Virus record (IMG/VR): IMGVR_UViG_3300049171_000092 | Location: 21,279-85,278 of that record | Length of the DNA stretch: 64,000 nucleotides | Source: a virus | Strand: one strand, 5' to 3' | Shown here: one piece after another, positions 8,885 through 31,539 of the stretch | Layout: each line of letters begins with the position of its first letter | How positions within the stretch are numbered: the first letter of the stretch is position 1 | Made by a program: the position numbers and the translations under genes | The notes under the pieces: generated by a model | Seen by the model: the letters and a program-made list of their open reading frames with translations, nothing else | Told to the model about the DNA's origin: nothing | The model's database searches: none

Positions 8885-8905
8885 GCCCGGCCCAGAACCA
8901 GCGGC
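8885..8905 (-). promoter_or_regulatory. late-gene box copy 1
   Basis: Coding strand GCCGCTGGTTCTGGGCCGGGC, ending 27 nt before the TTG at 8857. Confidence 0.6.
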
Positions 8906-8951
8906 TACCCGTCAGTCTAAGGCGCACAGGGGTACGCCACGTCGCCCCTGC

Positions 8952-9677
8952 TCAACCGTACAATTCGACGATTACTATGCCGTCCCCGCCTTCACCGCCG
9001 TCGACGTCGCCGCCGAAGGACAGGCCGCCGCCCGCGCCCGCGCCCCTGCCGCGCGGTCCGAGCCCGTTCCCCTCGGTGGTGCGGCCCAGTCCGCCCGTGC
9101 CCATGAACGAGTCGCCGCCGTGACCGGCCATGCCGTAATTGCCGTTGAGGCGGATCGCCGAGCCCGAAGCGCCGCCGCCCGCCCGGAAGTCGCCGCCCGT
9201 GCCCGCGTTGGGGCCGGCAATGCCCTGCGCCGTGCTCGGCGTGGCCCCGCTCGGCATGTTTGACGTGCCGCCCGCTCCGCCCGGCGCGAAGACGTGCCCG
9301 CCGAACTGGGACGAGCCGCCGTCGCCGCCGTCGGATCCGGCACCGCCGGCCGAGCCGCCTCGCCCGACGATGATCGTCTCGTTCGTGCCGAGCGCCGACA
9401 CCTGGATCAGGCCCTCGCCGTAGGCGCCGCCCGCTCCCCCAGGCCGCGCGATCGCCTCGTTCGTGTCGGCGTTCGCGCCCGCCGAACCGCCGCCCGCTCC
9501 CTGCACGCGGACCCTGACCCGCGCGAGCCACGGGTACGACGCCTTGCGGAACGTGAACGTGCCGGGGTCGGCGTACTCGAGGACCTGCCGCAGGCCCATC
9601 GTGCCCGGCTTCAGGCACAACTCCCCGTTGTCCGGGTCGACTACGAAAAAATCATCGCATACGCAAGCCCTTGCCAC
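8952..9677 (-). CDS. glycine-rich tail fibre-type protein (241 aa)
   Basis: Long GGxGG-type glycine-rich tracts; N-terminus MARACVCDD; GTG start. Confidence 0.6.
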   Translation of the reverse strand: MARACVCDDFFVVDPDNGELCLKPGTMGLRQVLEYADPGTFTFRKASYPWLARVRVRVQGAGGGSAGANADTNEAIARPGGAGGAYGEGLIQVSALGTNETIIVGRGGSAGGAGSDGGDGGSSQFGGHVFAPGGAGGTSNMPSGATPSTAQGIAGPNAGTGGDFRAGGGASGSAIRLNGNYGMAGHGGDSFMGTGGLGRTTEGNGLGPRGRGAGAGGGLSFGGDVDGGEGGDGIVIVELYG

Positions 9678-9703
9678 GGTTATCCCCAGATGTCCGAAAT
9701 GAC

Positions 9704-9724
9704 GCCCGGCCCAAAACCAGCGGC
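9704..9724 (-). promoter_or_regulatory. late-gene box copy 2
   Basis: GCCGCTGGTTTTGGGCCGGGC, ending 26 nt before the GTG at 9677. Confidence 0.6.
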
Positions 9725-9734
9725 TACGCAGAGG

Positions 9735-10259
9735 TTAGACCGCCGGGGCGCCGCTCGCCGTCATGTGCACCGGCACCCCGGCGCCGGACGGGACCAGCGG
9801 CAGCAGGCCCAGGCCGAGCAGCGCCTGAGTGCGCCACACCCGCACGACGGCCTGCGTCGTGGTGACCTGCTCCAGCGACACCGTCACCGTGCGGTCGTCG
9901 GCCGGCGTCGTGTCGACGGCGAGTGCTGTGATGACGGGCGGCGCGGTGAACGCCTTGGGGAACACCCACGTTGCGCGGCTGTCGGCGGCCGTAGTGACGA
10001 CCGCCGCGGCAGGCGGTGCGCCAGGCGGGCCGGGAGGGCCCGACTCGCCGGGCGCACCGGGCGCACCGGGCGCACCTGGCGATCCGGGCTCGCCGGGCGG
10101 CCCCGGGCGGCCGGGCTCGCCCTGCGGACCGCGCTCTCCTTGCTCGCCGCGCGGGCCGGGCCTGCGCGAGCCTGCACGCGCCGCCCGGCCGACCTCGCGC
10201 ATCACGCCACCCATCGGGTCACCCGGCAGCCGCCGGGCCGCTGATCCTCGTACCGCCAT
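9735..10259 (-). CDS. collagen-like repeat tail fibre protein (174 aa)
   Basis: About 16 uninterrupted G-X-Y triplets ([31 protein letters not shown]..) followed by a globular C-terminal domain. Confidence 0.75.
10014..10160 (-). repeat. G-X-Y collagen triplet repeat region within the CDS
   Basis: Residues about 34-82 of the 174-aa protein. Confidence 0.75.
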
Positions 10260-10263
10260 GCCG

Positions 10264-11289
10264 TCAGTCCTCCACGTCGCTCGTGACCGGCGCCAGTTGT
10301 ACCTTCACGCTCTCGCCGTCGCCGTCTTCTTCCACCTTCAGTCCCGCGATCTTGAGCCGCTGTGTCAGCGGCCGGCACGTCACTTGCGTGGCCACGTCGA
10401 CGCACCAGCCCGGCACGAGCGTCGCCACGTCGACCGCGGCTTCGGGCGACAAGGTCACCTCGTCCGACGACAGGAACACCGGCACCGGGTAGTTCGCCGC
10501 CCGGCGCGAGCGGGCCGCCGCCAGCGCCGACGCGTCCGTCTTGACCGACGTCTGCTCGACGCTGACCTCGAGCAGCCCGTAATAGCCATCAGCGCCGCCC
10601 GAGACGCCCTTCACGCCGCTGGCCTGGTCGCCGTGCACGATGACCCGCGTCGCGAGCTGCGAACCGTCCTCCGCCACGATTAGACCCTCAGGAAGATCCG
10701 CGTCGGTCAGCGTGCCCACCGACGCCGACCAGTCCTCGGGCATGAGCACGATCGTGTTGCCGACGGCCGTGTAGTCCAGCCCGGTGTCCGCGAGGTCGCG
10801 CAAGTGGTCGCCGGTCTGCCCGTCATCGCGCGTATAGGCGCGTCCGCCCTCGACGCCGGTCGGGCCGAGGATCCGCACCTCGTGCCCGGGGTCGTCGGGG
10901 GCGAAGCCGTCCTCGATGAGCCATGCCCCGATGTCCGCGAGGTCGGCGCCGGCGAACGTGACCGACTCGTGCGGCACGCGCCGGTCGAGCCAGACGAGAA
11001 TGTCGCTCGCCCACAGCTCGACCTTCCCCAAGGACCACTCGGCCTGGATGATGGGCCCCTCCCACACCGTCACCCCGTCGCGGGCAATGACGAGCTTGTG
11101 CCGCCAGGTGCGCACCCGGCCGAGCTGGGCGCAGCAGTCCCCGTCGGGGTTGATGATGACGTGAGCCGTCGACACGTCATCGAGGACGCGGGACCACTCC
11201 ACGGAAACGAGGACGTCGGCGTGGGAGACGACCGCGCCGTCCCGGTCGACGATCAGGGCCGAGTGAACCCCGCAGCCGGCTGACGACAT
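10264..11289 (-). CDS. minor tail protein (341 aa)
   Basis: Position after the tape measure gene and first minor tail gene. The ATG at 11289 ([10 protein letters not shown]..) lies 23 nt after a late-gene box. The track start at 11325 would translate the box. Confidence 0.6.
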
Positions 11290-11312
11290 GGGCACCCCTG
11301 TGTGAGGAGGTA

Positions 11313-11333
11313 GCCCGGCCCACAACCAGCGGC
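11313..11333 (-). promoter_or_regulatory. late-gene box copy 3
   Basis: GCCGCTGGTTGTGGGCCGGGC, preceded by CCTAACC. Confidence 0.6.
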
Positions 11334-11369
11334 ACCATCAGGTTAGGCGGGATGGATCCCCTGGGGTGG

Positions 11370-12713
11370 TCAGTAGCCGCGCCCGGACACGGCGACCGTC
11401 ACCGTGGCGTCCTCCGCAGGCGGCACCATCTCATCCGTCTCCAGGCACACGACGAGCGTGCCGCACTCGATCTCCGGCCAGGACGGTGGCGCCCCGTCGC
11501 GGCCCCACACATTCGTCGCCGTCTCGCAGGTGCCGCCGCACTCCACGGTCGCGCGCCCGATCTGCCCGTCGAGCGTCAGCGTGCCACTCGCGGGCACGAA
11601 CCCCACCTCGTACACGGCGAGCGGGTCGCAGCGTTTCTTGTCGGCCACCTGCGCCGCGGTCAGGCCCGCGTCGGCATCGCCCCGCTCGTAGAAGCTGATC
11701 GTGAGTCGGCGCAGGTCCTCGCTGCCCGCGTACACGGTGATGACCGGCACGTCCGACGACCAGGCGGGCCGCCCCGTCAGGTCGAGGTCGTAGCACTCCC
11801 GGTTGGTGGCGAGCGCTTGGCAGAAGCAGGAGGCGGGCGATGTCGGCTGCGGCGGCGACGGCGGAGCGCACGACGGGTCGGCGCACGCGGCGCCCGCGTC
11901 GGGGCAGCCGCGCAGCCGGCACCCGCCGGGCAGGCACTGCGGGAACCAGATCGGCCGGTCGTTGCGGTGCACACACCACTGGATGCAGTCGGTGTCGTCG
12001 TCGGTGGGGACGTTCACGCTCAGCACGGGCGTCTCGTCGGTCCATCCCCACGGCGTGGCGGCGATCAGCACGAACTCGACCGTGAGGATGTCCGCGCCGC
12101 GGCTGCACTGCCCTGCCGTACAGTTTCCGTCGCCGTTCCGCGCGGTCACGGTGGGCCCCTGCACGAGCGCCACACGCCGGTAGGTGCGCCGGTAGCGGGC
12201 GAGGAACTCGGCGGGCGTCTGCTCGTCGCCGGGGCAGCACTTGAGCATCTGCACGCAGTCACCGCCGCACGCGCTGCCCGTGCAGCCCTGCAACGCCTCG
12301 CCGAGCCAGTGAAGCCCGTACTCGACGGCGCAGCACGTCGCGCCGAGGAGAATGCCCGTCACGGTGATCGTGCGGGGCTGCACCCGAGCCGGGCCGAGCG
12401 CGCCGCCCCCGGCGACGGAGTTCGTCACCGTGCGGCGTACCGGGTAGTCGTCGATGCCGTCGAAGTCCAGCGGCAGGAACCCGACGAAGTCGGCGCTCTC
12501 GGGCACGTCGGGGTCGTACCAGGGCGCTGGGCTGTCGGGGTCGTCCGGGGTGGTGTAGGGGGCGTGGTCGAGCGTCTCGGCTGTGAGTGTCTCGCAGCCG
12601 CAGATGTCGTCGGCTCCCGACGTCAGCGGTGATCCGACCGTCGCCAGGTAGGCGCGCAGACGGGCCGTGTTGACCACTTCTATGCCGCCCACGGAAAGGA
12701 AGTCGGAGAGCAC
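11370..12713 (-). CDS. minor tail protein (about 447 aa, Cys-rich)
   Basis: First minus-strand gene after the tape measure gene. I preferred the GTG at 12713 (..LSDFLSVGGIEVVNTARLRAYL) with a GGGGG SD. The track start at 12776 would translate the box. Confidence 0.6.
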   Translation of the reverse strand: MLSDFLSVGGIEVVNTARLRAYLATVGSPLTSGADDICGCETLTAETLDHAPYTTPDDPDSPAPWYDPDVPESADFVGFLPLDFDGIDDYPVRRTVTNSVAGGGALGPARVQPRTITVTGILLGATCCAVEYGLHWLGEALQGCTGSACGGDCVQMLKCCPGDEQTPAEFLARYRRTYRRVALVQGPTVTARNGDGNCTAGQCSRGADILTVEFVLIAATPWGWTDETPVLSVNVPTDDDTDCIQWCVHRNDRPIWFPQCLPGGCRLRGCPDAGAACADPSCAPPSPPQPTSPASCFCQALATNRECYDLDLTGRPAWSSDVPVITVYAGSEDLRRLTISFYERGDADAGLTAAQVADKKRCDPLAVYEVGFVPASGTLTLDGQIGRATVECGGTCETATNVWGRDGAPPSWPEIECGTLVVCLETDEMVPPAEDATVTVAVSGRGY

Positions 12714-12737
12714 GAGCGAACCCCCAGAACGCAGAAC

Positions 12738-12758
12738 GCCCGGCCCACAACCAGCAGC
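12738..12758 (-). promoter_or_regulatory. late-gene box copy 4 (variant)
   Basis: GCTGCTGGTTGTGGGCCGGGC, ending 24 nt before the GTG at 12713. Confidence 0.5.
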
Positions 12759-12939
12759 GTGTGAAAAGTCTGTCACACCTCACGGAGCATGCTCTGAACT
12801 GGCACTTTGCCGGTAAGTACTGCAACTTTCAGGGTCGTTGGAACGTCGTTATACGTGAGCGGGCCGCCCCGGTGTTGCGACCACCGGAACGGCCCTGACC
12901 GACACCCCTTGTGGCTCTTGGACCTGAAGGAGTACGGCT

Positions 12940-14046: not shown

Positions 14047-14091
14047 CACGATGCGCAGGCCCTCGCTCCCCAGTGACAGGGGCCCGCGCGG

Positions 14092-17334: not shown

Positions 17335-17362
17335 CGGGCACCCTCACGTGATCGTGAATGGT

Positions 17363-17384
17363 GCCCGGCCCAGAACCAGACGGC
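17363..17384 (-). promoter_or_regulatory. late-gene box copy 5 (1-nt insertion)
   Basis: GCCGTCTGGTTCTGGGCCGGGC, ending 28 nt before the GTG at 17334. Confidence 0.5.
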
Positions 17385-17420
17385 GTCGGCAGCACGCGCG
17401 GCGCTGCCTCGAATCTCAGG

Positions 17421-17783
17421 TTAGCCGCTGCGACGGCTTGCGAGCTGTGCGTCTTCCGCCGCGACCTGCGCCATCAGTGCCCGTGCCTGGCCCGCGTCGA
17501 CGCGTGCTGCGGCCGGCCGGCCGCGAGCTCCTCGAGCTCGTTCACCGCGAGGCGGCGCGTACAGCTTCGCCCGGATGCGCTGCCGCTCGGCGTCGTCTTC
17601 CGCCGCCATGTCCATCGCGGCCTCGGCAGCGGCGAGCATCGTTTTCAGCGGCCACGCGTGCGGGTCGGTCCCATTGAGGGCGAGTTGCCCGAGCCACGAG
17701 TCCCAGCTGGCTTCGATGCTTTCGCAGATCCGGAAGACGACATAGTAGGGCGCGAGCCGCCTCCGAAGAGCTCGACGACCCAC
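17421..17783 (-). CDS. tail assembly chaperone -1 frame extension (T part of the G-T fusion)
   Basis: The ORF is open in the -1 frame relative to the upstream chaperone, overlaps it by at least 139 nt, and has no SD of its own. The fusion product would span 17421..18184. Confidence 0.55.
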   Translation of the reverse strand: MGRRALRRRLAPYYVVFRICESIEASWDSWLGQLALNGTDPHAWPLKTMLAAAEAAMDMAAEDDAERQRIRAKLYAPPRGERARGARGRPAAARVDAGQARALMAQVAAEDAQLASRRSG

Positions 17784-18184: not shown

Positions 18185-18210
18185 AGGTCTTTCCCTGTCT
18201 CCCGTTCCTC

Positions 18211-18232
18211 GCCCGGCCCACAACCAGTCGGC
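18211..18232 (-). promoter_or_regulatory. late-gene box copy 6 (1-nt insertion)
   Basis: GCCGACTGGTTGTGGGCCGGGC. Confidence 0.5.
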
Positions 18233-18259
18233 GCACTACGAAGGGTACTGGCCGTGCCG

Positions 18260-19218: not shown

Positions 19219-19227
19219 GAGGGCTCC

Positions 19228-20037: not shown

Positions 20038-20064
20038 GACGTCTCCTCATGGGCAGATGGGGGT

Positions 20065-20108
20065 GTGCGGTGGCCGGACGGGGAACGGGGTCCGTGCGGC
20101 CACCGCAC
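20065..20108 (-). terminator. strong hairpin (attenuator/terminator) after the putative tail tube gene
   Basis: GTGCGGTGGCCG ... CGGCCACCGCAC, a 12-bp stem with an inner GGAC/GTCC pairing. Confidence 0.55.
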
Positions 20109-20135
20109 GATCAGGGGCGCCGACAGCCGGGGCTG

Positions 20136-20822: not shown

Positions 20823-20846
20823 GCCGAAACCTCCTACTAGCAGGAG

Positions 20847-20867
20847 GCCCGGCCCAAAACCAGCGGC
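20847..20867 (-). promoter_or_regulatory. late-gene box copy 7, followed by an SD-sequestering hairpin
   Basis: GCCGCTGGTTTTGGGCCGGGC, then CCTCCT gctagt AGGAGG, then a TTG start 24 nt after the box. Confidence 0.6.
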
Positions 20868-20922
20868 TCAATATGCGAGTTTAGCTGCGGCGCTGTGCTG
20901 CACGGCTGCCGCTTTCGGCTGC

Positions 20923-21222: not shown

Positions 21223-21234
21223 GATGGGCCCGCC

Positions 21235-22092: not shown

Positions 22093-22120
22093 GGGAGCAC
22101 TCCTCAGGAGGTGAGAGAGT

Positions 22121-22141
22121 GCCCGGCCCAAAACCAGCGGC
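22121..22141 (-). promoter_or_regulatory. late-gene box copy 8
   Basis: GCCGCTGGTTTTGGGCCGGGC; the spacer contains a CTCCTGAGGAG self-complementary SD region. Confidence 0.6.
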
Positions 22142-22224
22142 TCATTGGTGAGTTTATCGATCCGGGGTCGCCGTGAAGGTGGCCCCGGTGCCGCGCCCGG
22201 CGGACGACCGGGCGCGGCGTCGAG

Positions 22225-25200: not shown

Positions 25201-25989
25201 CGCGTCGTAGCTGTACCCCTCCGGCAGGTGCAGCGGGATGACGTCGGTCGAGAACGTCACCGATCCGGGCCCGACCTGCACCACACTGAACTGGACGGTG
25301 GAGGGCTGCCCGAATTCCCACGTCTGCGGTCCGGCGCTGTCGCGCGGGTAGGTCTGGATGCCGTACCAGTAGCCGGTTCCGTCGGCCGAGGCGACGTTGG
25401 CCTCCAGCTCCATCGGGCCGTTGTTACCGTCCCCGGTCACGGACCAGGAGACCCCGCTGGATGCGGTCCCCGATCCCGCGTTCTCCGCCGGGGCGATGAC
25501 CCCCTGGGGGCCGGTAGTGGCGGACAGGACGTCGCAGAGTTGCAACGTCTCGCAGCCGGCGCACTGCGGCGGGGTGCAGACGCCGACGGTGCCCGTGACG
25601 GTGTACGGGGTGCCGTCGAGGGTGAGGTCGGTGTGCCCGTCCGGCTCGCCGGTCGCGCAGTCGTAGGAGTAGCGGCGCAGAAACCGGACGGGCTCGCCGC
25701 CACCGGCCGGGGCGTCGCACAGCAGCTCCGTGTGGCTGTCGCAGCCGCCCTCGGTGGGGCACTGCGTCAGCTCACCCTGCACCGTGTACGCCTCGCCCGT
25801 GACGGGGTCGACGGTGCGCGTCGCGACGCGCTGGCCCGTGGAGGCGTCGTAGACCGGCTCGACGGCCACCAGGGCGGCGACGGTGCCGTCTGGCAGCACG
25901 TCGCACATGACGAGCGTTTCGACGTCGAGCCGCTGCGAGGCGGCGGGGTTGTTGAAAACGACGGGCTGGCCGCAGCCGCATCCGCTCAC
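22225..25989 (-). CDS. giant Cys-rich modular repeat protein (1254 aa), unknown family
   Basis: GTG start with a GTGA overlap on the upstream stop. Five FLR..C.D..TG..TD.LDG.PY..G..G.C modules are separated by three paralogous domains of about 170 aa, plus a C-terminal domain of about 350 aa. The first 136 codons of the track ORF overlap the upstream gene and were rejected. Confidence 0.75.
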   Translation of the reverse strand: MSGCGCGQPVVFNNPAASQRLDVETLVMCDVLPDGTVAALVAVEPVYDASTGQRVATRTVDPVTGEAYTVQGELTQCPTEGGCDSHTELLCDAPAGGGEPVRFLRRYSYDCATGEPDGHTDLTLDGTPYTVTGTVGVCTPPQCAGCETLQLCDVLSATTGPQGVIAPAENAGSGTASSGVSWSVTGDGNNGPMELEANVASADGTGYWYGIQTYPRDSAGPQTWEFGQPSTVQFSVVQVGPGSVTFSTDVIPLHLPEGYSYDAATRTLSSTSDDCPSLRTPAVATSATFLTAAPVSSMVITTPQAVPICGQVGATRVGGFVLNPGPVPFLRTLCRDCATGETTVTDTTLDGTTAYQVLGTTGACETPPGTDCEIVQLCDVQHQVPAVLPSFGTPDEQWQTLAANGVRWMKRGLDMASGDGWYLAADNAPERFDFDRPVSIRYTVRFSGPTATPLRIPAGWYLDSINTVQHTWNAATRTISPTASATQVGESVFKTDALTAQTMFAPVLTGAQTAGQTSQYGQITVAADVAVPFLRTLCRDAGGVTTADTTLDGVTLYEVQGEAGTCPEPPSTSSPCADCETLILCDSGSPATITGTAAQGTLANGVAYTARNPGPLSTGTAMPARIANSDGIAFWGLHSFPNLADAPTRWTFSLPSVVEFSVYLIGSPTNPPSNQAQLPVGLEVLSLPENYTYDPATGVLTRTWDGTTDSCTYVTDPQPEHMARFRTPGPVTSLTTQPGQGSRIAACTTFFTYYVGAFSVAPGGQFLRRICRDCDGQVTSVTDTLMDGVTPYVPVGDVGQCQQEPPCDLSVVEECTYSMPDGAVGFDLNSASYPDCMLATATNPRYGYGDRVTAWEGTYESSTGAISAFGFTSGDLGGDINWAAFNPAIPIHPTQSPAGYVGTATFNGVVVTLRALAGNGVARNDDPTKLNVDNGDRYRIEFSKPVRLTLTTTGFGDPPAPHFERFCGVVVDTVPWPAVKLADCQGRIKVVDAVTGSAIPARATLTCGDNCCQPVQVCIQQIPTQTREFISNEAHRNDNTVDPVWKWTTDLNAASPVWYDMYQFQFSADWTVRDSDTARPAWWVSPHPDGRSAQSSPPRPNEGPSLLNVHWYPRAFFDLPDNADPSSIRVQATVFNADQAGRAFRLNDGAWQTLPASATHNGTTYTFGPDAIPGAKAGRNALYLDVEETVGGGAGLMVHLKVFYQVIPETRSWTRMVCCDDSIYYLDEDGQRQDAPPDGWRVAPCFLPPSSANG

Positions 25990-28535
25990 GTCGTGACTCC
26001 TGTCGTGAAGTTGATCGTTACCGTTCCGGTCTGGGCTGCGATCCGCAGCGGACCGACGAGCCTGGCGTCGATGTCTTTGCTGATCGCCCACCGGGCTGTC
26101 TCGCCGTCGTGCAGGGTCGAGGTGCCGTCGGCGGTGGTCACCTGGCCCGTGCCGGTGCGCGCGGTCGCCTCGACGGTGCGCAGCAGCGGCCAGGCGTCGG
26201 CGTCCCACGTCTCGCCGGGGTCGAGCTGCACGCGCCGCGCCTGCACCACGACGGCGGGTTCGGCGTCGCCGGTGTTCGTGTCGGCGTCGCACGGGATCGG
26301 TGCGATCGGCGTGTAGGGGGCGGAGAGGTCGGGCGTGTACGTGCCGAGCGGTGTGAGCGTGCCGGAGGTGTCGGCGAGGAGCAGCTCGGCGTAGCACGTA
26401 TCGGCGGTGCCGTCGCCGTCGGTGTCGTCGCAGCGTTCGGCGCGGATGATGCTCGAGCCGGCCGGCGTGCTGCTCGCCGGACAGAGGCCGACGGTGCCGG
26501 CGGGCGTGTACGGGGTGACGCCGTCGAGAGCGAGATCCGTGACGTCGAGGACGGCGCCGGTGCAGGTGAACGCGACGCGGCGTAGGAACGGCGTCACCGT
26601 GCCGTCTATGGCCGTGTCGCAGAGCGTCATGACGGCCGTGTCGCAGGGCTCGGCCGGTGGTGCGTCACCGTCGGCGTCGCAGTCGACGGGCGAGACTGGC
26701 GCGTAGGCCGCGGACAGGTCGGGCAGGTAGTCGCCGAGTGGGCTGATCAAGCCGTCGCAGTCGACGGCGAGGAGCGCGACGTAGTCCGTATCGGCGACGC
26801 CGTCGCCGTCGGTGTCGTCGCAGCGGCAGACGCGGAGCACGTTCGTCGTCGTGCACGGCTGGGGCGGGACGGGTGGGGATCCGGTGCCGCTGCCGGGTAC
26901 GCACTGCCGGACGTCGCCGCCGACGGTGTACGGGGCGCCGTCGAGCGTCGTGTCCGTGATCTCGGTGACCTGGCCGGTCTCGCAGTCGGTGACGATCGTC
27001 CGTAGGAACTGGACGGCGCAGCCGTCGAGGGTGGCGCCGATGTCGACTTGATCGACGGTCCATGCCTTCGGCCCGAGGTGGTGCGTCTCGAGGATGAGGA
27101 TGACGTACAGGTCGCCGGAGGTGAGATCGGCGGCCGTGATCGGGGCGATCGCGTTCAGTGTCTGCTGGTAGCCGACGGGCGGATTCGAGAGGACGCCTTC
27201 GCCGAGGAGTCCGGTCGTGCCCCGGTAGATGCCCATGCGGCCGACGTAGGCGATGCCGTCCGTCGGCCCGTTCAGGGTGACCCGCATGGAGACGGAGAGG
27301 CTGCCTTCGCCGCCCTCGCAGGGCTGGCCGGTGATCCGGCCGACAGCGACGCGGTAGACCTGCGAGCCGTCGCCGGCGGAGGCGTCGGCGTCTGCGGGGA
27401 ACGTGAACGGTCCGCCTGCCCACAGGTCGGCGAACGAGCCGGGCAGCGTCGCGAACGGGGTGGTGAGGCCGACGTCTTGGATCGTCGCGTCGCTGATCGT
27501 CAGCGGTATAGGAGTCGCCGTGAGCGTGGTGTCGCACAGGACAACGGCTGTCGTGTCGCGGCACGGCTGCGCGTCGCATGAGGTGATCGTGCCGGTCGGC
27601 ACGTAGGCGGCGCCGTCGAGCGTGTAGTCCGAGTGCCCGACGATCGCACCCGTTTCGTTGCGCCGGTAGTCGCGCAGGAACGGCGTCACGGTGCCGTCGG
27701 CGGCGACTTCACACAAGACCGCGAGGTCCTGCTCGGGCTGGTCTATGCCGGTGGGGCAGGTCGTGATCTCGCCCTGCGGCGTGTACGGCTGGCCGGTGGT
27801 GGCGTCGACGAGCTGAACGCCGCCGACGCTGCCGTCGGGGTTGTAGGTGTACTGCACGAGGACAAGGCCGAGGACGTCGCCGGTCGCCGGGTCCGTGTCG
27901 CAGAACGTGCCGGTGGTCGAGATGTTCCGCGGCGTACCGCAGGCGGTGACTCCGGTGGGGGGCTGCCCGGCGGAGTAGGCGCCCGTCGCAAGGTTGAGCC
28001 AGCCTTCCTGCCGGATCACGCCGTCGCAGTCGCGGGTGACGAGGACGGCGATGGGTGTGCCGTCGGCGAGGCACAGGCCGAGCGTCGCCAGGGGTGCGCG
28101 CTGCTCGAGGCAGTCGGAGCCGCCGTCGCAGGATCGTACTTGGCCGATGACGACGTGCGGGGTCTCGCCGTCGATCTCGACGTCGACGTAGGCGGCGGTG
28201 CCGTTGGAGAGGAAGGTGAACTTCCGCAGGAACGGGCGGCCGGAGTCGTCGCAGAGCATCTCGGTGTGGCACTGCATGGTGCCGTGCTCGCAGTCGACCG
28301 GCGAGATGGGCGTGTACGGCTCCGAGGGGTCGCCCTGGTAGGTGAGGACGAGCTGGCTGGTGCCGTCCTGCTCGATGCACCAGAGTTCGCTGTAGGTGGT
28401 GTCGGGCAGGCCGTCACCGGTCGTGTCGTCGCAGCGCAGGACGCAGGTGGTGGTGACGCACGTGGGGGGGCATTCGCATTCGCCTCCGCCGCCTCCCCCG
28501 GCGCCGCAGGTGCAGCCGCTGTAGGAGATGGCCAT
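25986..28535 (-). CDS. giant Cys-rich modular repeat protein (849 aa), unknown family
   Basis: N-terminus MAISYSGCTCGAGGGGGGECECPPTC. Four FLR..LDG.PY modules and three RCDDTDGDGxADTxY..PDLSxxYxP..CDAD modules. Coupled to both neighbouring genes. Confidence 0.75.
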   Translation of the reverse strand: MAISYSGCTCGAGGGGGGECECPPTCVTTTCVLRCDDTTGDGLPDTTYSELWCIEQDGTSQLVLTYQGDPSEPYTPISPVDCEHGTMQCHTEMLCDDSGRPFLRKFTFLSNGTAAYVDVEIDGETPHVVIGQVRSCDGGSDCLEQRAPLATLGLCLADGTPIAVLVTRDCDGVIRQEGWLNLATGAYSAGQPPTGVTACGTPRNISTTGTFCDTDPATGDVLGLVLVQYTYNPDGSVGGVQLVDATTGQPYTPQGEITTCPTGIDQPEQDLAVLCEVAADGTVTPFLRDYRRNETGAIVGHSDYTLDGAAYVPTGTITSCDAQPCRDTTAVVLCDTTLTATPIPLTISDATIQDVGLTTPFATLPGSFADLWAGGPFTFPADADASAGDGSQVYRVAVGRITGQPCEGGEGSLSVSMRVTLNGPTDGIAYVGRMGIYRGTTGLLGEGVLSNPPVGYQQTLNAIAPITAADLTSGDLYVILILETHHLGPKAWTVDQVDIGATLDGCAVQFLRTIVTDCETGQVTEITDTTLDGAPYTVGGDVRQCVPGSGTGSPPVPPQPCTTTNVLRVCRCDDTDGDGVADTDYVALLAVDCDGLISPLGDYLPDLSAAYAPVSPVDCDADGDAPPAEPCDTAVMTLCDTAIDGTVTPFLRRVAFTCTGAVLDVTDLALDGVTPYTPAGTVGLCPASSTPAGSSIIRAERCDDTDGDGTADTCYAELLLADTSGTLTPLGTYTPDLSAPYTPIAPIPCDADTNTGDAEPAVVVQARRVQLDPGETWDADAWPLLRTVEATARTGTGQVTTADGTSTLHDGETARWAISKDIDARLVGPLRIAAQTGTVTINFTTGVTT

Positions 28536-28939
28536 CAGCTATCCCCCTCGGGGTGGGCCTGGCGGCGGTGGGTGTTCCGGCCGCGTTCGGTCGCGAAGGT
28601 GCGCGGGCACCGATCGCAGGCGTAGGCGTCGTCGGCGTCGTCGCTGGGGGCGTCCTCCAGCGGCGCGAAGTCCGAACCCGGCCCGGTCTCGCTGAAGGCC
28701 TCGGGGGTGGCGACACCCAGGAGTTCCTGGTCAGCGTCCTCTTCGGGTGAGCGGTAGCGGTGGCCGTCGACGAGGGAGCCGATCAGCAGCTCTTCCGGCA
28801 TGTGCGTGAACAGGTCCGGGGGGACGGCGAACTCGCTGTGGGAGCAGGTTTCTACCTGCGGGGTCTGGGCGGTCGCCCACCGGGCGAACGCTGCACGCCG
28901 CTCGGGCGCGGGCCGCACTTTGATCATCGTCAGCAGCAC
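28535..28939 (-). CDS. 134-aa acidic protein with a C-terminal classical C2H2 zinc finger
   Basis: YACDRCPRTFATERGRNTHRRQAH fits C-x2-C-x12-H-x4-H; overlaps both neighbouring genes. Confidence 0.6.
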   Translation of the reverse strand: MLLTMIKVRPAPERRAAFARWATAQTPQVETCSHSEFAVPPDLFTHMPEELLIGSLVDGHRYRSPEEDADQELLGVATPEAFSETGPGSDFAPLEDAPSDDADDAYACDRCPRTFATERGRNTHRRQAHPEGDS

Positions 28940-29766
28940 GTCGAGATCCTCACTGCCGCCGCCTCACAGCACGCCACCTCGATCACGGAAGTGCGCTCGG
29001 CGAGGACGTACCGGTCATTCAGGCGGGTGTCGATGCTCCCGGCCTCGGTGGGCGGGATGATGTCGAGCGGTCCGCGCCGCACCCGCACGGGCCCGGTGAT
29101 GTAGAGCCACGCTTCGCCGTCGGGTGCCTGCGTGCAGGTCGGCCCGCCGACGTTCGTGGCGTAGCCGGCGCCCATCACCACGCCGTTACCCATGAGCGTT
29201 TCGGGGCATTGGGTGTCGCGGGTGCGGGTGACGACGTTGCAGCAGCCCAGCAGCGCTGCCGCGCCGGCAGGGATGTGCAGGATGCCTTCGCCGCCGTAGT
29301 GCTCGGCCAGCCAGCCCTCCAGCGCGGCGATGCCCTGCGCGGCCGGCAACGCCCCCGACGCGGGGGTGAGGTCGTTGTCGGCGGCCATCGTGCACAGGGC
29401 GTTCATCATGAACCAGGATTCGAGGGCGCGCTGCTCGCCCATGCGGAGAGTTTCCGCAGCGTGCTCGACGGCCTCGTCGTAGGTCATGCCGAACGTGCTG
29501 CACGTGGACCCTGCGTATGTAGTCACCGGGTCGAACTCGCACACCCCGGGCCGGTCGAAGATCTTCGATGCCGGGTTGGGCACGGTGGGGGGCGGGCAGT
29601 CCCGCTCCCACGTGTGGGTCTCCGCGCACGACAGCGGCACGAACTGGGTGCCGTTCATCTCGTGCAGATCGGTGACGTCTACGACCTCTACGCACCCGCC
29701 GAGGAGGCCGTAGGGGCTCGGGTTGCCGCGGATGGGGGCTACGGTCTTGCGCATCCCTCCCGCCAT
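28930..29766 (-). CDS. Cys-rich 278-aa structural protein; possible second HK97-fold (capsid-like) protein
   Basis: I preferred the ATG at 29766 (MAGGMRKTVAPIRGN..). The patterns ..EAVEHAAETLRMGEQRALESWFMMNAL.. and ..LNDRYVLAERTSVIEV recall the spine helix and C-terminus of HK97-like capsid proteins. This is only a weak visual argument. Confidence 0.5.
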   Translation of the reverse strand: MAGGMRKTVAPIRGNPSPYGLLGGCVEVVDVTDLHEMNGTQFVPLSCAETHTWERDCPPPTVPNPASKIFDRPGVCEFDPVTTYAGSTCSTFGMTYDEAVEHAAETLRMGEQRALESWFMMNALCTMAADNDLTPASGALPAAQGIAALEGWLAEHYGGEGILHIPAGAAALLGCCNVVTRTRDTQCPETLMGNGVVMGAGYATNVGGPTCTQAPDGEAWLYITGPVRVRRGPLDIIPPTEAGSIDTRLNDRYVLAERTSVIEVACCEAAAVRISTCC

Positions 29767-29842
29767 CTGCCTCACGCCCTCTCGTGGTTCGGGCGCAGCC
29801 CCGGCCGGGCAGATGGCCGAGGCTGCGCGCAAAGGGGGTGGG

Positions 29843-31489
29843 TTAGGCGGTCGGGCAGGCGACGGCGGCGCGCGGGCCGACGGAGCCGTCGGCGCAGACC
29901 GGGATGGTGATGGCGCGGGCCTGCGGGCCGCGGTAGATGAGGGCGTTGCAGGACTCGAAGAACAGGGCGGTCATGTCGTTGGTGCGCAGCAGGGTGCTGT
30001 CGTGGACGACGCCGAGGTTGATCTCGGGGCCGCGGCCCATCTGGAAGGCGCCGGCCGGGTAGAGCAGGGCCTGCACGGTGGCGGGCCAGGCGGTGGCGGG
30101 GGTGGTGTTGCCGATCTGGGTGGGGACGGCCGGGGGCAGGCCCTTGACCCACTGGACGCGGACGCCGAGGTCGGCGAAGGCCTGCTCGACGCAGTTCTGG
30201 TTGAGGTCGCAGACGTTGACGCCGTCACGGCGGGCGATGTCGGCGAGGAACATGTTGCGCGCCCAGTACGGCAGGACCAGCTCGAGGCCGATCCGCTCGC
30301 AGAGGTTGAACCGTTCGGTCATGTCGGCGATCTGCAGGGCGAGCGCCCCGTACACCGCCGAGAAGGACGCGAAGCTGGTGGCGGTGGTGACGGGCGTGGC
30401 CCGGGTGAGGGCCTGCTGGTACATGGCGGCCTTGAGACGCATCTCGTAGGCAACCATGGCGCGGCGGATGTAGAAGGTGGTCAGTTCCGGGAAGAACCGC
30501 TGGGAGAGGATGCCGGCCTGGATGCAGGCGCCGTAGGCGGTGCAGCGGACCTCGACCGGGTCCACACAGGGGATCTTGAAGCAGGGCTTGGTGGGGTCGC
30601 CGTCGACCGCGCTGATGTCGTCGGCTTCGGTCCAGACCCACGACATGGCGGTGACGTCCAGCTCGGGTGTCATGTAGTAGCGCAGCCCGCCCCGGGACAG
30701 GTTGAGCTCGGGCAGGTCCCACAGGTTGTCCGGGCAGGAGATCTCGGTGAAGTCGTACACCGTCTCTGAGGGGGCGCACCAGCCGCCCGAGGCGACGAGG
30801 TCACCGCCCTTCAGGCGCCGCTGGTCGGCGGCCTTCAGGACCTTGGTGGTGCCCTCCTCTGGGGAGCCGGCGTCGTTGATGACGAGGTCCTGCGGGAAGG
30901 GCAGCTGGTACGAGGCGGCGATGGCCTTGCCGCCGTTGGTGACGAGCTGCGCGACCTTGGTGACGGACTCGGTCAGCCCGTCCATGTCCAGCGGTGCGCC
31001 GAGGCTGGCGCCGGGGACCTCGGCGGAGGCGACGATCGTGACGGCCGGGGTGCCGGACTGCGGCATCGGCTGCCGCGGCTGCCGCTCCCGCACGGTGGCG
31101 AGGCTGATGATCGGGCGCCGCACGACGGCGGACGACGCGGCGACCTCCTCGACGACCGGCTCCTCCTCGGCGGCGGGCTCGGCCGGCTCGTCCGTCTCGG
31201 CGGCCGGGTGGTCGTCGGTGTCGGTGGCGGCTTCCTCGCCGAGGACCTGGGCGGCGAGTTCGTCGAGTTCAGCGACGGCAGCCTGCGCGGCTTCGACGCG
31301 CTGGGTCTGCTCGGCGCGCAGCGCCTCGATTCCGGTGGCCAGCTCCCGCAGGACGGGCAGGTCTTCGGTGGTGAGGTTGGGGTCCTGACGCCGGGCGTTG
31401 AACGCCTCGACGGCGGCGGCGAGGGTGGCGTCGAGGTCCTCGCTGCTGAGGCTGGTGACGTCGTCGGGAAGCTGGAAGGGCTCGGACAT
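29843..31489 (-). CDS. major capsid protein with an N-terminal acidic/coiled scaffold-like region (548 aa)
   Basis: Position after the MuF/protease gene. The first 150 or so residues are acidic coiled coil. ..LVASGGWCAPSETVYD.. is a motif seen in actinophage capsid proteins. The gene has its own box. Confidence 0.75.
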   Translation of the reverse strand: MSEPFQLPDDVTSLSSEDLDATLAAAVEAFNARRQDPNLTTEDLPVLRELATGIEALRAEQTQRVEAAQAAVAELDELAAQVLGEEAATDTDDHPAAETDEPAEPAAEEEPVVEEVAASSAVVRRPIISLATVRERQPRQPMPQSGTPAVTIVASAEVPGASLGAPLDMDGLTESVTKVAQLVTNGGKAIAASYQLPFPQDLVINDAGSPEEGTTKVLKAADQRRLKGGDLVASGGWCAPSETVYDFTEISCPDNLWDLPELNLSRGGLRYYMTPELDVTAMSWVWTEADDISAVDGDPTKPCFKIPCVDPVEVRCTAYGACIQAGILSQRFFPELTTFYIRRAMVAYEMRLKAAMYQQALTRATPVTTATSFASFSAVYGALALQIADMTERFNLCERIGLELVLPYWARNMFLADIARRDGVNVCDLNQNCVEQAFADLGVRVQWVKGLPPAVPTQIGNTTPATAWPATVQALLYPAGAFQMGRGPEINLGVVHDSTLLRTNDMTALFFESCNALIYRGPQARAITIPVCADGSVGPRAAVACPTA

Positions 31490-31518
31490 TGCCGTTGACT
31501 CCTGGTGTGATCACAGGA

Positions 31519-31539
31519 GCCCGGCCCAAAACCAGCGGC
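31519..31539 (-). promoter_or_regulatory. late-gene box copy 9, followed by an SD-sequestering hairpin
   Basis: GCCGCTGGTTTTGGGCCGGGC, then CTCCTGTGATCACACCAGGAG, then an ATG 29 nt after the box. Confidence 0.6.

Follow-up and report, generated by a model that had tools for sequence, protein, structure and literature searches.

A strongly conserved 21-base box before late genes of actinobacterial phages and prophages, probably encoding a small RNA hairpin

Introduction

Described phage systems that bear on the one considered here include the RNase III sites of T7, which cut a long transcript into stable units, the stoperators bound in L5 by the repressor gp71, and antitermination elements of the nut/boxB and put kinds, in which a nascent hairpin, alone or with a factor, makes RNA polymerase resistant to Rho or terminators. 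Here we describe a 21-base box repeated in a window of 64,000 nucleotides (positions 21,279 to 85,278 of the IMG/VR virus record IMGVR_UViG_3300049171_000092), which an earlier note had read either as a late promoter or activator site in DNA, or as an RNA-level, start-associated element. The box is real, and there is good support for reading it as the DNA form of a small RNA hairpin under very strong conservation, one of a family in late-gene leaders that appears to be previously undescribed. Its carriers are a large set of phages and prophages whose hosts are Streptomyces and related bacteria.

Results

All nine minus-strand copies listed in the earlier note were found where it had placed them (Table 1), six as the exact 21-mer, one (at 12738) with a single mismatch to the box, and two (at 17363 and 18211) as forms lengthened to 22 nt by an additional base (GCCG(T/A)CTGG...). 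A tenth copy, which had been missed, lies on the plus strand. Shuffles gave a chance expectation of 0.05 copies, and no shuffle reached the ten observed. Scored with a covariance model, the ten copies reached 29.6–37 bits, against 20.4 bits for the next best match, which lies within coding sequence. The distance from box end to start codon was 23–29 nt in all ten, the same range as the fixed spacing first reported, and the four over-extended open reading frames said to translate the box do so.

Table 1. Box copies, -10-like hexamers and predicted leader structures in the window
Feature	Position	Strand	Remarks
Hairpin copy 1 (GCCGCTGGTTTTGGGCCGGGC)	31519..31539	-	36.7 bits; 29 nt before capsid start at 31489
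Hairpin copy 2	22121..22141	-	28 nt before 285-aa Cys-rich fibre-like gene, start 22092
Hairpin copy 3	20847..20867	-	24 nt before major tail gene, TTG at 20822
Hairpin copy 4, 22-nt form, 3-nt bulge (GCCGACTGG...)	18211..18232	-	34.5 bits; 26 nt before tail assembly chaperone gene, GTG at 18184
Hairpin copy 5, 22-nt form (GCCGTCTGG...)	17363..17384	-	33.8 bits; 28 nt before tape measure gene, GTG at 17334
Hairpin copy 6, U3·G19 variant (GCTGCTGG...)	12738..12758	-	24 nt before 447-aa minor tail gene, GTG at 12713
Hairpin copy 7	11313..11333	-	37 bits; 23 nt before 341-aa minor tail gene, ATG at 11289
Hairpin copy 8	9704..9724	-	26 nt before Gly-rich fibre gene, GTG at 9677
Hairpin copy 9	8885..8905	-	27 nt before 280-aa fibre-like gene, TTG at 8857
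Hairpin copy 10, loop variant GGTCATGGG	60648..60668	+	29.6 bits; 27 nt before DUF6292 gene, ATG at 60696
Weaker -10 candidates, copy 1	31547..31567	-	CACAAT 31547-31552 (7 nt upstream); TAAGAT 31562-31567 (22 nt upstream)
TAAACT, -10-like	22151..22156	-	9 nt upstream of copy 2
TAAACT, -10-like	20878..20883	-	10 nt upstream of copy 3
TACCCT, -10-like	18242..18247	-	9 nt upstream of copy 4
TAACCT	17418..17423	-	33 nt upstream of copy 5, inserted hairpin between
CAGACT, near -10 hexamer	12767..12772	-	8 nt upstream of copy 6
TAACCT, -10-like	11340..11345	-	6 nt upstream of copy 7
TAACCT, -10-like	9732..9737	-	7 nt upstream of copy 8; TAA (9735-9737) doubles as stop codon of upstream 174-aa gene
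TAGACT, -10-like	8914..8919	-	8 nt upstream of copy 9
Strong terminator-like hairpin	31568..31615	-	-37 kcal/mol
Capsid leader stem, CUCCUG...CAGGAG, pairing Shine-Dalgarno	31490..31518	-	stem begins at last base of box
285-aa gene leader stem, CUCUCUCA...UGAGGAG, over Shine-Dalgarno	22093..22120	-	z = -1.9
Major tail leader stem, CCUCCU-GCUAGU-AGGAGG, over Shine-Dalgarno	20823..20846	-	
Tape measure leader helix	17332..17369	-	-33.8 kcal/mol, z = -4.4

The identities first given to the downstream genes were upheld by PHROGs and Pfam assignments in the window (capsid, phrog_777; major tail, phrog_792; tape measure, minor tails and Gly-rich fibre) and, for the chaperone gene, by homology to TP1604 gp04/05. 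The claim that no copy precedes lysis or accessory genes was correct for the lysis genes of this window but not for accessory genes, one of which follows the tenth copy. Likewise, virion genes carry the box family-wide, but the proposed restriction to structural genes was too narrow, as eight endolysin genes in relatives also carry it. In the survey of the box family the downstream gene families were only capsid, tail, fibre and lysin, and terminase, portal and MuF genes never had the box before them. The start codon lay 24–29 nt past the box in 72% of 324 leaders, with looser spacing (22–62 nt) in cluster BG phages and Gordonia phages. Some compensated variants of the outer stem recurred by gene family in several elements, for example ACC/GGU before capsid genes and GUC/GAC before Gly-rich fibre genes. 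These variants suit purifying selection better than the homogenisation expected of a selfish or recombinational repeat, such as a miniature mobile element or "boundary sequence" that gene conversion keeps identical and that promotes module shuffling without a role in expression. Identical 21-mers at gene boundaries of mosaic tail-fibre regions, and the tandem copies that occur, would fit such a repeat, but it leaves the fixed relation to the -10-like hexamer and start codon and the late-gene restriction unexplained, the box has no target-site duplications or terminal repeats, and we give the idea almost no credence.

The earlier note had treated the box as specific to this phage, while naming conservation in related phages as a check; the box is instead spread over several actinobacterial orders and present in many actinobacterial phages and prophages. 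The exact 21-mer occurs in at least 118 viral stretches of IMG/VR and at least 120 actinomycete genome stretches, the host genera among the matches listed including Streptomyces, Kitasatospora, Embleya, Nonomuraea, Planotetraspora, Micromonospora and others, and the isolated Streptomyces phage TurkishDelight has an exact box. Boxes with different apical loops were found in cluster BG Streptomyces phages, Gordonia phages and Microbacterium phages. The stem-and-bulge core is nearly invariant, although this invariance is inflated by the collection of loci through exact box matches, and neighbouring proteins have only 45–73% median identity; the same box occurs in elements with capsids only about 50% identical and hosts from several orders. 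The window and TP1604 have no regulator in common, their only common non-structural proteins being a lysin and a DUF3307 membrane protein. Many box carriers are integrated prophages, which would be consistent with stoperator-like sites, at which a prophage repressor on many oriented copies would block late-gene initiation or elongation during lysogeny, as would asymmetric, intergenic, transcription-oriented copies overlapping about +1 to +21 of putative promoters. We nevertheless consider this role highly improbable. Immunity specificities normally outpace structural genes in divergence, whereas here one box serves diverged capsids across host orders; the copies are confined to late genes and not genome-wide, and the covariation described below favours RNA. 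The motif also occurs in phages without integrase or repressor, namely TP1604, with neither annotated, Phlop, with neither in the 27 kb fetched, and Hendrix, which is reported to be lytic (PMC7302621).

The predicted hairpin consists of a 3-bp outer stem (1-21, 2-20, 3-19), a 5' bulge G4C5 (GNC in two window copies), a 4-bp inner stem (U6·G18, G7-C17, G8-C16, U/C9-G15) and a free apical loop, which is freely variable across IMG/VR. The bulge tolerates one additional base, and Microbacterium phage Hendrix has a 22-nt, partly self-complementary loop insertion. In loci collected with the outer bases left free, pair 1-21 was G-C in 433 cases, A-U in 5 and G·U in 5; pair 2-20 was C-G in 440, U-A in 13 and U·G in 8; and pair 3-19 was C-G in 378, U·G in 50 and U-A in 16, with A19 occurring exclusively with U3. 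The formal covariation count found 99.7% of cells paired and double changes at all three outer pairs, a level of covariation reached by none of 500 shuffles, and slid controls collapsed. Gordonia and Microbacterium phages have the alternative outer stems AUC/GAU and CUC/GAG. Half-changed states compatible with G·U on the sense strand numbered 63, against 1, an excess to which a C-to-T mutation bias of the non-template strand could contribute.

The joint changes at the three outer pairs, together with the tolerance of bulge and loop, argue for a sense-strand RNA hairpin and against a duplex-DNA site. They back the second reading of the earlier note, since pairs compensate, half-changed states pass through G·U, the bulge varies and the loop can expand, and they count against its first, in which the box would be a late promoter or activator site bound as duplex DNA by a phage RNA polymerase, a phage sigma factor or an activator of late genes. 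The asymmetry and high conservation of the box, and its fixed distance from late genes and no others, would suit such a site, and the window encodes small HTH/GerE/sigma-region-4-like proteins. However, the compensatory changes with sense-strand G·U intermediates, the invariant U·G positions, the 2-/3-nt insertion in one "half-site" only and the loops of 5 to 27 nt would disrupt duplex DNA but leave a hairpin intact, and the TAnnCT hexamer is a separate upstream signal whose distance of 5–14 nt varies too much for a single composite promoter. The lack of a common regulator in the window and TP1604 also speaks against it, and we regard a duplex-DNA site as very unlikely.

Folded alone, the box was no more stable than its shuffles (z = +0.8). 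Its hairpin was in the minimum-energy fold of only 1% of 399 leaders, and enforcing it cost about 9 kcal/mol; GC-rich shuffled leaders out-compete it as well. The three CTCCT...AGGAG leader hairpins noticed earlier are present and fold as described. Pairing of the Shine-Dalgarno sequence in such hairpins is real, but family-wide the excess stability of leaders is small (about 1.3–1.9 kcal/mol), except in tape-measure leaders. In that of the window, the box's 3' strand, GCCGGGC, together with ACC forms a helix with GGUGCCCGGU that spans the Shine-Dalgarno sequence and reaches into the opening bases of the start codon; this helix and the box hairpin are mutually exclusive. In 34 of 41 tape-measure leaders, 9–11 of 11 nt (box 15-21 plus 4 nt) were paired with the Shine-Dalgarno-to-start segment, and this fold has its own compensations, from AACC/GGUU to CACC/GGUG and ACC/GGU, and box A19 with downstream GCUCG. 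An alternative fold of the box 3' strand with the Shine-Dalgarno/start region is well supported in tape-measure leaders.

The upstream sequence first described as CTAA(A/C)C is indeed present, although TAnnnT, a hexamer whose end lies 6–10 nt before the box, describes it better. Across 336 distinct contexts, a -10-like hexamer of this form (mostly TAnnCT) ended 5–14 nt upstream in 289 (86%), an enrichment of about 55-fold over flanking positions; T-12, A-11 and T-7 were invariant, C stood at -8 in 92% and G at -14, and no -35 consensus was found upstream of the box. G is almost absent from position -1, as would suit transcription starting at G1 with a pyrimidine at -1 and a purine at +1. Six of the ten window copies have the hexamer and three more a near-match or distant one, leaving four without a canonical hexamer at 5–14 nt. 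Copy 10 has none within 30 nt upstream (TATGTT lies at 38 nt), and the TAACCT that lies 33 nt from copy 5 stands about 6 nt from the box in relatives. We infer from these patterns a promoter role for TAnnCT and a 5'-terminal position of the hairpin. The terminator-like hairpin in Table 1 sits between the upstream gene stop (TAA 31618-31620) and the putative capsid promoter/hairpin unit, and such hairpins occur upstream of two units, suggesting separate transcription units. This bears on intercistronic processing or 3'-protection, in which there would be one long late transcript, the hairpins would mark where RNase E, RNase III or exonucleases cut or halt, and TAnnCT would be part of a single-stranded recognition site and no promoter. 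The copies, about ten per genome, do lie in short intercistronic gaps and are all sense-oriented, and the hexamer exceeds its surroundings in AU content and keeps a short but varying distance to the stem, as RNase E sites often do. We consider processing quite unlikely, since the hexamer has the exact actinobacterial -10 form, its 6–10 nt distance distribution matches -10-to-start distances, it misfits the mycobacterial RNase E preference (RN↓CNU), and a 7-bp stem is too short for RNase III.

Discussion

We postulate, with about even confidence, that the box is a 5'-leader RNA operator of late genes, governing translation and/or mRNA stability; the following mechanism and partner are inferred. 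A putative -10-only, housekeeping-type promoter hexamer (gc-TAnnCT) lies 5–14 bp upstream of the hairpin, with the start codon about 27 nt downstream. Transcription would begin at or just before G1, placing the hairpin at the 5' terminus or no more than a few bases from it, where it would act in cis to set the protein yield per late message. It would do so in two ways, by opposing an alternative fold in which GCCGGGC and the adjacent spacer pair with the Shine-Dalgarno/start region, and by keeping RNases E and J, both 5'-end-dependent, away from the terminus. A conserved trans-acting partner, likelier a host than a phage factor, probably binds and stabilises the hairpin, because the core is near-invariant amid diverged proteins and the hairpin is practically absent from equilibrium folds under the nearest-neighbour model. 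Binding of this partner would switch or boost late-gene translation coordinately. Counting against this picture, an invariant sequence would not be required of a plain 5' stabiliser or kinetic trap.

It is also conceivable, if unlikely, that the box is a nut/boxB-like or put-like antitermination element of the late operon. The hairpin would be the first RNA to emerge from the polymerase, right after each promoter, and its predicted displacement once downstream RNA exists would fit a co-transcriptional role; terminator-like hairpins lie within the operon, and a core kept across host orders suits a partner whose conservation matches that of RNA polymerase or the Nus factors. On the other hand, antitermination would be largely unneeded in type-2 elements, which have a hairpin per one to three genes, each with a promoter-like hexamer, and the tight start-codon spacing and Shine-Dalgarno/start pairing indicate translation. 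Base counts taken position by position around the box show no conspicuous boxA-like companion, and a scan of window ORFs brought up no NusG-like, N-like or Q-like protein. In favour of antitermination, the arrangement of the box family, with a conserved core and a lineage-specific loop, recalls the division between boxA and boxB.

Box copies in the window and their downstream genes

Searching the window with GCCGCTGGTTNTGGGCCGGGC at up to three mismatches recovered, at identical positions, all nine minus-strand copies of the 21-nt box that an earlier note had described ahead of late genes, including the 22-nt forms at 17363 and 18211, which carry one inserted base (GCCG[T/A]CTGG). The search also found a tenth copy on the plus strand (Table); the chance expectation in the shuffled window was 0.05 matches. 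All ten copies are oriented with the downstream gene, each is followed by a start codon 23–29 nt past its end (10/10), and they scored 29.6–37 bits with a covariance model. The next-best covariance-model match (20.4 bits) was rejected as an eleventh copy, being antisense and within coding sequence. The gene assignments made earlier were borne out by PHROGs, Pfam and homology, the boxes preceding genes for the capsid (phrog_777), major tail, chaperone, tape measure, two minor tail proteins, a Gly-rich fibre and two fibre-like proteins. The tenth copy, which is remote from the late operon and lies on the other strand, precedes a DUF6292 gene, and no -10-like hexamer stands in the 30 nt ahead of this copy; in relatives, boxes were not again followed by DUF6292 genes. 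As had been suspected, four ORFs of the mechanical ORF list translate the box (…WAG…), these being longest-ORF calls that start within or upstream of it. Several box-following fibre-like genes encode Cys-rich N-termini (LARCQCGGTGCNC, VARACVCDD, MSSAGCG and MADCCGAKRCTC), and fibre-like proteins of relatives have a matching pattern (MARCGCGGG...) with a conserved CxC signature.

The window has a G+C content of 69.5%, and its minus strand encodes terminase, portal, a MuF/protease fusion, capsid, tail and lysis genes. No near-identical DNA was found among GenBank phages, and a tRNA/tmRNA search of the window found none. The capsid shares 46–54% identity with its counterparts in Streptomyces cluster BG/Woodruffvirus phages and in TurkishDelight; capsids of Gordonia phages, Microbacterium phages and cluster B mycobacteriophages are more distant relatives. 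The set of FtsK/TraB-like, GntR+UTRA, HTH_17, resolvase and GerE-like genes recalls actinomycete integrative conjugative elements, and an FtsK-like protein is also encoded by the cluster BG phage TP1604. Two very large ORFs, both phrog_18824 and without a Pfam domain, separate the head genes from the 285-aa gene, and neither has its own box.

Table. Coordinates of features in the window and in three comparison phages
Feature	Sequence	Position	Strand	Remark
Small serine resolvase	Window	4120-4707	-	
Fibre-like gene	Window	8015-8857	-	Cys-rich N-terminus
Fibre-like gene	Window	8952-9677	-	Cys-rich N-terminus
Over-extended ORF	Window	10264-11325	-	Corrected start 11289; fibre-like gene 10264-11289, Cys-rich N-terminus
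Over-extended ORF	Window	11370-12776	-	Corrected start 12713
Over-extended ORF	Window	17645-18223	-	Corrected start 18184
Over-extended ORF	Window	21235-22131	-	Corrected start 22092; fibre-like gene 21235-22092, Cys-rich N-terminus
Terminator-like hairpin	Window	22160-22215	-	Ahead of 285-aa gene unit
phrog_18824 ORF	Window	22225-25989	-	1254 aa
phrog_18824 ORF	Window	25986-28535	-	849 aa
Terminator-like hairpin	Window	31568-31615	-	Ahead of capsid unit
FtsK/TraB-like ATPase	Window	46125-48266	-	
Rejected eleventh copy	Window	51461-51488		Antisense, within coding sequence
HTH_17 excisionase-like protein	Window	52944-53240	-	
GntR+UTRA regulator	Window	53373-54119	-	
Tenth box copy	Window	60648-60668	+	
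DUF6292 gene	Window	60696-61154	+	After tenth copy
GerE/sigma-region-4-like protein	Window	63358-63684	-	
Tandem hairpins	TurkishDelight (L244)	18517-18577; 22908-22955		
Repeat of ~350 nt	TP1604 (L001)	7322-7700; 19625-19975; 41964-42300		Upstream of gp09, gp20, gp50
Annotated 33-bp repeats	Merry (L246)	1758-1790; 2308-2340; 4004-4036; 5628-5660; 10343-10375		GCTAGACTATAGGTGTAAGCC

Covariation and structure of the box

The sense strand of the box can be drawn as a hairpin in which, numbering its bases 1–21, the outer pairs are 1-21, 2-20 and 3-19. To let these positions vary, 463 distinct sites were gathered by a central-core anchor that left three outer bases per side free. Pair 2-20 was C-G in 440 sites, U-A in 13 and U·G in 8, and A20 never occurred with C2; pair 3-19 was C-G in 378, U·G in 50 and U-A in 16, with A19 confined to sites with U3; and pair 1-21 was G-C in 433, A-U in 5 and G·U in 5. 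Shifted pairings of the outer bases gave mismatches. A formal covariation count over 47 distinct variants found 99.7% of cells paired, with double changes at each of the three outer pairs; the observed score was reached by none of 500 shuffles, and the signal collapsed with slid partners. Half-changed states were compatible with G·U pairing on the sense strand by 63 to 1, an asymmetry to which a C-to-T bias of the non-template strand could contribute, although the perfectly matched double changes are beyond what such a bias can produce.

Two inner positions are conserved U·G pairs, the bulge G4C5 places 2 nt (3 nt in some copies) on one arm, and the distance between the arms varies from 5 to 27 nt. 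Together with the G·U bias, these features argue that the box is not a palindromic duplex-DNA site. The resulting model has a 3-bp outer stem, the GC bulge, a 4-bp inner stem (U·G, G-C, G-C, U/C-G) and a free loop; in its invariant core C3[G4C5]U6G7G8 pairs with C16C17G18G19, while the apical loops vary freely (UUnUG, CGUUA, CCGAG, CUGUG and others). Because of the covariation we consider the box very probably to be an RNA hairpin in late-gene leaders; thermodynamic folding alone fails to single it out. Between the two readings offered by the earlier note, the covariation thus favours an RNA-level element, and the other, that the box itself is a DNA promoter or activator site, now seems very unlikely.

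Rfam 15 gave zero gathering-score matches across the whole window and, at E-values up to 10 in window positions 8000–32000, none overlapping any box. A kink-turn was rejected, tandem G·A pairs being absent, as was mimicry by the loop of a tRNA T-arm, anticodon arm or 3'-CCA pairing, the loop being unconserved across lineages. Papers searched for the sequence itself, for Streptomyces phage motifs, for related phages and for Gordonia phages gave no description of the motif. It seems to be a cis-regulatory RNA of actinophage late genes that is widely distributed and has so far gone undescribed.

Distribution and conservation

The exact 21-mer is present in at least 118 stretches of IMG/VR contigs and at least 120 stretches of actinomycete genomes or plasmids, the genera among the matches listed including Streptomyces, Kitasatospora, Embleya, Actinacidiphila, Nonomuraea, Planotetraspora, Planomonospora, Sphaerisporangium and Micromonospora. 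The isolated phage TurkishDelight carries it before its capsid, major tail (in tandem), chaperone, tape measure (in tandem), minor tail and tailspike genes. Cluster BG phages TP1604, Xkcd426, phiSAJS1 and Mischief19 have the variant GCYGCTGGCG(T/G)TAGGCCGGGYC before capsid, major tail and one other gene, and the Gordonia phages Phlop and TillyBobJoe have GCCGCTGGCCGAGGGCCGGGC before capsid, major tail and tape measure. Further variants are ATCGCTGGCTAGGGGCCGGAT and GCTGCTGGCTAGGGGCCGGGC in the Gordonia phages Twonlo and JKSyngboy, and CTCGCTGGCCTTGGGCCGGAG in the Microbacterium phage Hendrix, which also has a copy containing a 22-nt, partly self-complementary loop insertion. A second IMG/VR scan added many apical loops, including CUGUG, CUGCG, CCUCG, CUACG and CCAGG. 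The motif is absent from cluster B mycobacteriophages, whose capsids belong to the same family.

Tandem hairpins, with start-to-start distances of 24–44 nt, occur in TurkishDelight and in three other retrieved loci (L002, L006 and L039). In the major-tail tandems inspected (TurkishDelight, L002 and L039), the first copy preserves the spacing to the upstream hexamer described below, and in that of TurkishDelight the second preserves the 27-nt spacing to the start codon. TP1604 also contains three copies of a ~350-nt intergenic repeat, with blocks 73–93% identical, which is a distinct, larger repeated regulatory region of cluster BG phages.

Among 428 distinct box contexts, the downstream gene encoded the chaperone in 59, the Gly-rich fibre in 55, the major tail and tape measure in 51 each, the 280-aa fibre-like protein in 43, the 285-aa fibre-like protein in 42, the 341-aa minor tail protein in 30, the capsid in 22, the 447-aa minor tail protein in 17, endolysin in 8 and the 849-aa protein (phrog_18824) in 2; the other 48 were unmatched to window proteins (other fibre-like proteins, lysins and small ORFs). 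Terminase, portal and MuF genes followed the box in none of the 428. The box lies upstream of the Shine-Dalgarno sequence, and in 72% of 324 leaders (the segments from box to start codon) a start codon with a Shine-Dalgarno sequence is found 24–29 nt past it, with a mode of 27; the distance is looser, 22–62 nt, in the cluster BG and Gordonia phages.

The downstream proteins have median identities of 45–73% to their window orthologues, and the box is mostly unchanged, in loci that were retrieved by exact match. Even allowing for that retrieval bias, the comparison points to strong purifying selection on the box. Since the stem and bulge are near-invariant while the adjacent proteins have diverged, sequence-specific recognition of the hairpin is implied. 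Compensated box variants have arisen repeatedly and independently before different gene families. That the box is a recombinational or selfish repeat is the least credible of the explanations we considered. Repressor sites of the stoperator type are also highly improbable: the motif is restricted to late genes, shows covariation of the RNA type, and is common to heterologous phages, including ones reported to be lytic or lacking an annotated integrase.

Upstream hexamer and putative promoter

A TAnnnT hexamer ends 5–14 nt (mostly 6–10 nt) upstream of the box in 289 of 336 (86%) distinct exact-box contexts, such hexamers being ~55-fold rarer at flanking positions, and six of the ten window copies have one. 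It corresponds to the CTAA(A/C)C-like sequence that had been noticed ahead of the boxes, and at times overlaps a TAA stop codon (e.g. 9735-9737). Contexts aligned on the hexamer show T-12, A-11 and T-7, with C at -8 (92%) and G at -14, and no -35 signal. This form is that of the actinobacterial housekeeping (HrdB/SigA-type) -10 element, a TAnnnT hexamer that stands ~7 nt before the transcription start and often lacks a -35. Its distance to the box fits -10-to-start distances and is too variable for a single protein site spanning both. Partly on account of this variability, and also of misfits in bases or spacing, sigma-54 (-24/-12), WhiG/sigma-28 (TAAA-N15-GCCGATAA) and ECF-type promoters, an AdpA box and Chi-like readings were rejected on inspection.

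The base preceding the box is almost never G, but a pyrimidine at spacing 6 and often A at spacing 7–8, giving the box edge a pyrimidine(-1)/purine(+1) composition. From the hexamer spacing and this composition we infer a transcription start at G1 or 1–4 nt upstream, which would make the hairpin 5'-terminal; the 6–10 nt spacings predict an overhang of 0–4 nt in ~76% of contexts. An intercistronic processing site is an alternative reading of such a segment between late genes, and we consider it quite unlikely. Two units, those of the capsid and of the 285-aa gene, are preceded by strong terminator-like hairpins, GC-rich and lacking U-tracts, in the gap from the previous stop codon to the hexamer. 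Scans of the GC-rich window for sigma-70 consensus promoters (0 found) and for U-tailed terminators (a chance-level count) were uninformative.

An alternative fold over the ribosome-binding site

The three leader hairpins over the Shine-Dalgarno sequence that had been proposed earlier were present on folding. Family-wide, leaders exceed shuffled controls in stability by just 1.3–1.9 kcal/mol. Tape-measure leaders stand apart: in 34 of the 41 distinct ones, box positions 15–21 and the next four bases pair, at 9–11 of 11 positions, with a downstream stretch extending from the Shine-Dalgarno sequence to within the start codon. Compensations are seen in this helix (AACC/GGUU to CACC/GGUG or ACC/GGU), and in leaders with A19 box variants GCUCG replaces GCCCG downstream; the window tape-measure leader folds with -33.8 kcal/mol (z = -4.4). 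This helix and the box hairpin are mutually exclusive. Across 399 leaders, forcing the box hairpin costs a mean of ~9 kcal/mol, and the hairpin is still present in 1% of the minimum-energy folds; it is out-competed in shuffled GC-rich leaders too. As evolution has maintained the hairpin although it is out-competed, it must matter co-transcriptionally, before the competitor is made, or when bound.

In four IMG/VR loci of one sublineage (L255, L268, L305 and L335), the box 3' end CGGGCAC pairs with GUGCCCG 3 nt downstream, forming a second hairpin that excludes the box hairpin and leaves the Shine-Dalgarno sequence uncovered. The competing fold is thus not always a sequestor of the ribosome-binding site.

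Proposed mechanism and significance

As the best-supported reading, we propose that the box is a late-gene leader operator. A -10-only promoter would fire and the first 21 nt of the transcript would fold into the hairpin. While the hairpin is present, especially if bound by a factor, its 3' strand would be unable to sequester the ribosome-binding site and the 5' end would be base-paired, a state that may favour translation and protect the message from the 5'-end-dependent RNases E and J. Both enzymes are present in Actinobacteria. Taken as a whole, this scheme seems to us evenly balanced between right and wrong, and we are much less certain of any single downstream step than of the RNA hairpin.

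The proteins shared by the window and TP1604 are structural ones, a lysin and a DUF3307 membrane protein, and nothing else; looked for through this shared gene content, a phage-encoded partner did not emerge. Pfam scans of ~40 non-structural window ORFs found no RNA-binding, NusG-like or N-like candidate. With so little shared gene content and no Pfam candidate, the partner of the hairpin is more probably a host factor that is conserved, or else a small protein that evolves fast. It is conceivable, though we hold it with considerable doubt, that a conserved part of the host machinery docks on the hairpin (RNA polymerase, a Nus protein, a ribosomal protein or an RNase, for example), the hairpin marking the late transcripts of a whole actinophage lineage. 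An antitermination signal of the nut or put kind would also be a small RNA hairpin near a phage promoter; the ORF scans turned up neither an N-like nor a NusG-like protein and position-by-position base counts show no conserved flanking (boxA-like) motif, so that this reading is improbable.

To our knowledge, late-gene control in actinobacteriophages is essentially unexplained. Start-associated repeats without explanation have been described in several actinobacteriophage clusters (PMC3203893, PMC7302621). The box would be the first repeat of this type with comparative data showing RNA structure, and it has a defined conserved core and a plausible alternative fold over the ribosome-binding site. 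It is spread through hundreds of prophages in antibiotic-producing actinomycetes and offers a testable handle: a 21-nt element with naturally made compensatory mutants and the carriers TurkishDelight, TP1604, Phlop and Hendrix, all of which could help in tracing the partner and working out the mechanism. For annotation, the box corrects gene starts, as in the four over-extended window ORFs, and marks late transcription units in prophages; it is also a possible expression part for Streptomyces. If the hairpin were indeed a host docking site, it would be a phylum-wide, phage-borne RNA operator through which every virion and lysis gene is turned on together at the level of translation or elongation. 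Such a post-transcriptional control of late genes would be the first to be defined in actinobacteriophages, and the 21-nt element would double as a portable expression tag for Streptomyces.

Comparison with known systems

The ompA leader and the 21-nt 5' hairpin of T7 gene 10 mRNA are stabiliser stem-loops located 0–4 nt from the 5' end of abundant (late) messages, where they protect against 5'-end-dependent decay, and T7 class III transcripts have a common conserved promoter-proximal hairpin. These stabilisers are largely sequence-independent, whereas the bulge and stems of the box, at a predicted 5' end, are near-invariant across very divergent phages, and its 3' strand can pair instead with the translation initiation region. 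In Mu Com-mom activation and the MS2 maturation-gene kinetic trap, a hairpin lying upstream is in competition with a second fold, which hides the Shine-Dalgarno sequence or start codon, and a bound protein or co-transcriptional folding sets ribosome access. These are single-gene devices; the box is one common hairpin on up to ten leaders, conserved across a phage lineage. In its proposed working, the box most resembles the ompA/T7 gene 10 stabilisers and the Com-mom/MS2 alternative-fold switches.

The lambda nut boxB/N and HK022 put systems likewise involve small conserved RNA hairpins just after phage promoters that affect downstream operons, and the division of the box into a conserved and a lineage-specific part is like the boxA/boxB split. 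However, nut and put sites number one or two per genome and are unrelated to start codons, and lambda boxB has a GNRA-like pentaloop, bound by the arginine-rich N protein, and is accompanied by a boxA motif; the box has ten copies, and no GNRA-like pentaloop, boxA or N-like protein was found. Stoperators of cluster A mycobacteriophages (mentioned in PMC3203893) are also numerous and asymmetric, placed in short gaps between genes and aligned with transcription, and are 13-bp duplex-DNA repressor sites, genome-wide and immunity-group-specific. The box differs in its RNA behaviour, its confinement to late genes and its occurrence in heterologous phages, including those reported as lytic or without an annotated integrase.

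Start-associated sequences (SAS) and their extended form (ESAS) are found in cluster K mycobacteriophages and cluster EF Microbacterium phages, the SAS being a 13-bp motif, GGGATAGGAGCCC, at the ribosome-binding-site position genome-wide, and the ESAS paired imperfect 17-bp inverted repeats with a variable spacer, for which the authors found little support as mRNA hairpins (PMC3203893, PMC7302621). Like the box, SAS are short, asymmetric, highly conserved intergenic repeats that point in the direction of the gene they precede, keep a fixed short distance to its start codon and are conserved across subclusters. They number 10–19 per genome, compared with ten boxes, which stand at the same gene families in relatives, and for both a role in translation initiation is suspected, the function of SAS being unexplained. 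SAS reportedly lie a few bp from the start codon; the box lies ~27 nt away, upstream of the Shine-Dalgarno sequence and before late genes only, is unrelated in sequence to GGGATAGGAGCCC or GGGAAAGGACCCC, shows strong hairpin covariation, and occurs in phages of several host orders. Unlike the ESAS repeats, its arms are 3 and 4 bp, with a bulge, and covary strongly.

Cluster EC Microbacterium phages carry an 18-bp asymmetric motif, TAGaCTATaGGTgTaAgC, at ~12 copies per genome in one orientation (PMC7302621). Its architecture is like that inferred for the box, a -10-like TAGACT with a conserved transcribed segment directly after it, 21–30 bp upstream of start codons, and its function is likewise unexplained. 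It differs in sequence, has no evident hairpin, is confined to one or two clusters, and precedes non-structural genes and genes between terminase and portal rather than virion genes. The annotated 33-bp repeats of the Microbacterium phage Merry are this published motif, and have the layout of box units (TAGACT fused to the transcribed segment, ~20 nt before the start) on non-structural genes. The closest described counterparts of the box are the start-associated sequences of clusters K and EF and the cluster EC 18-bp motif.
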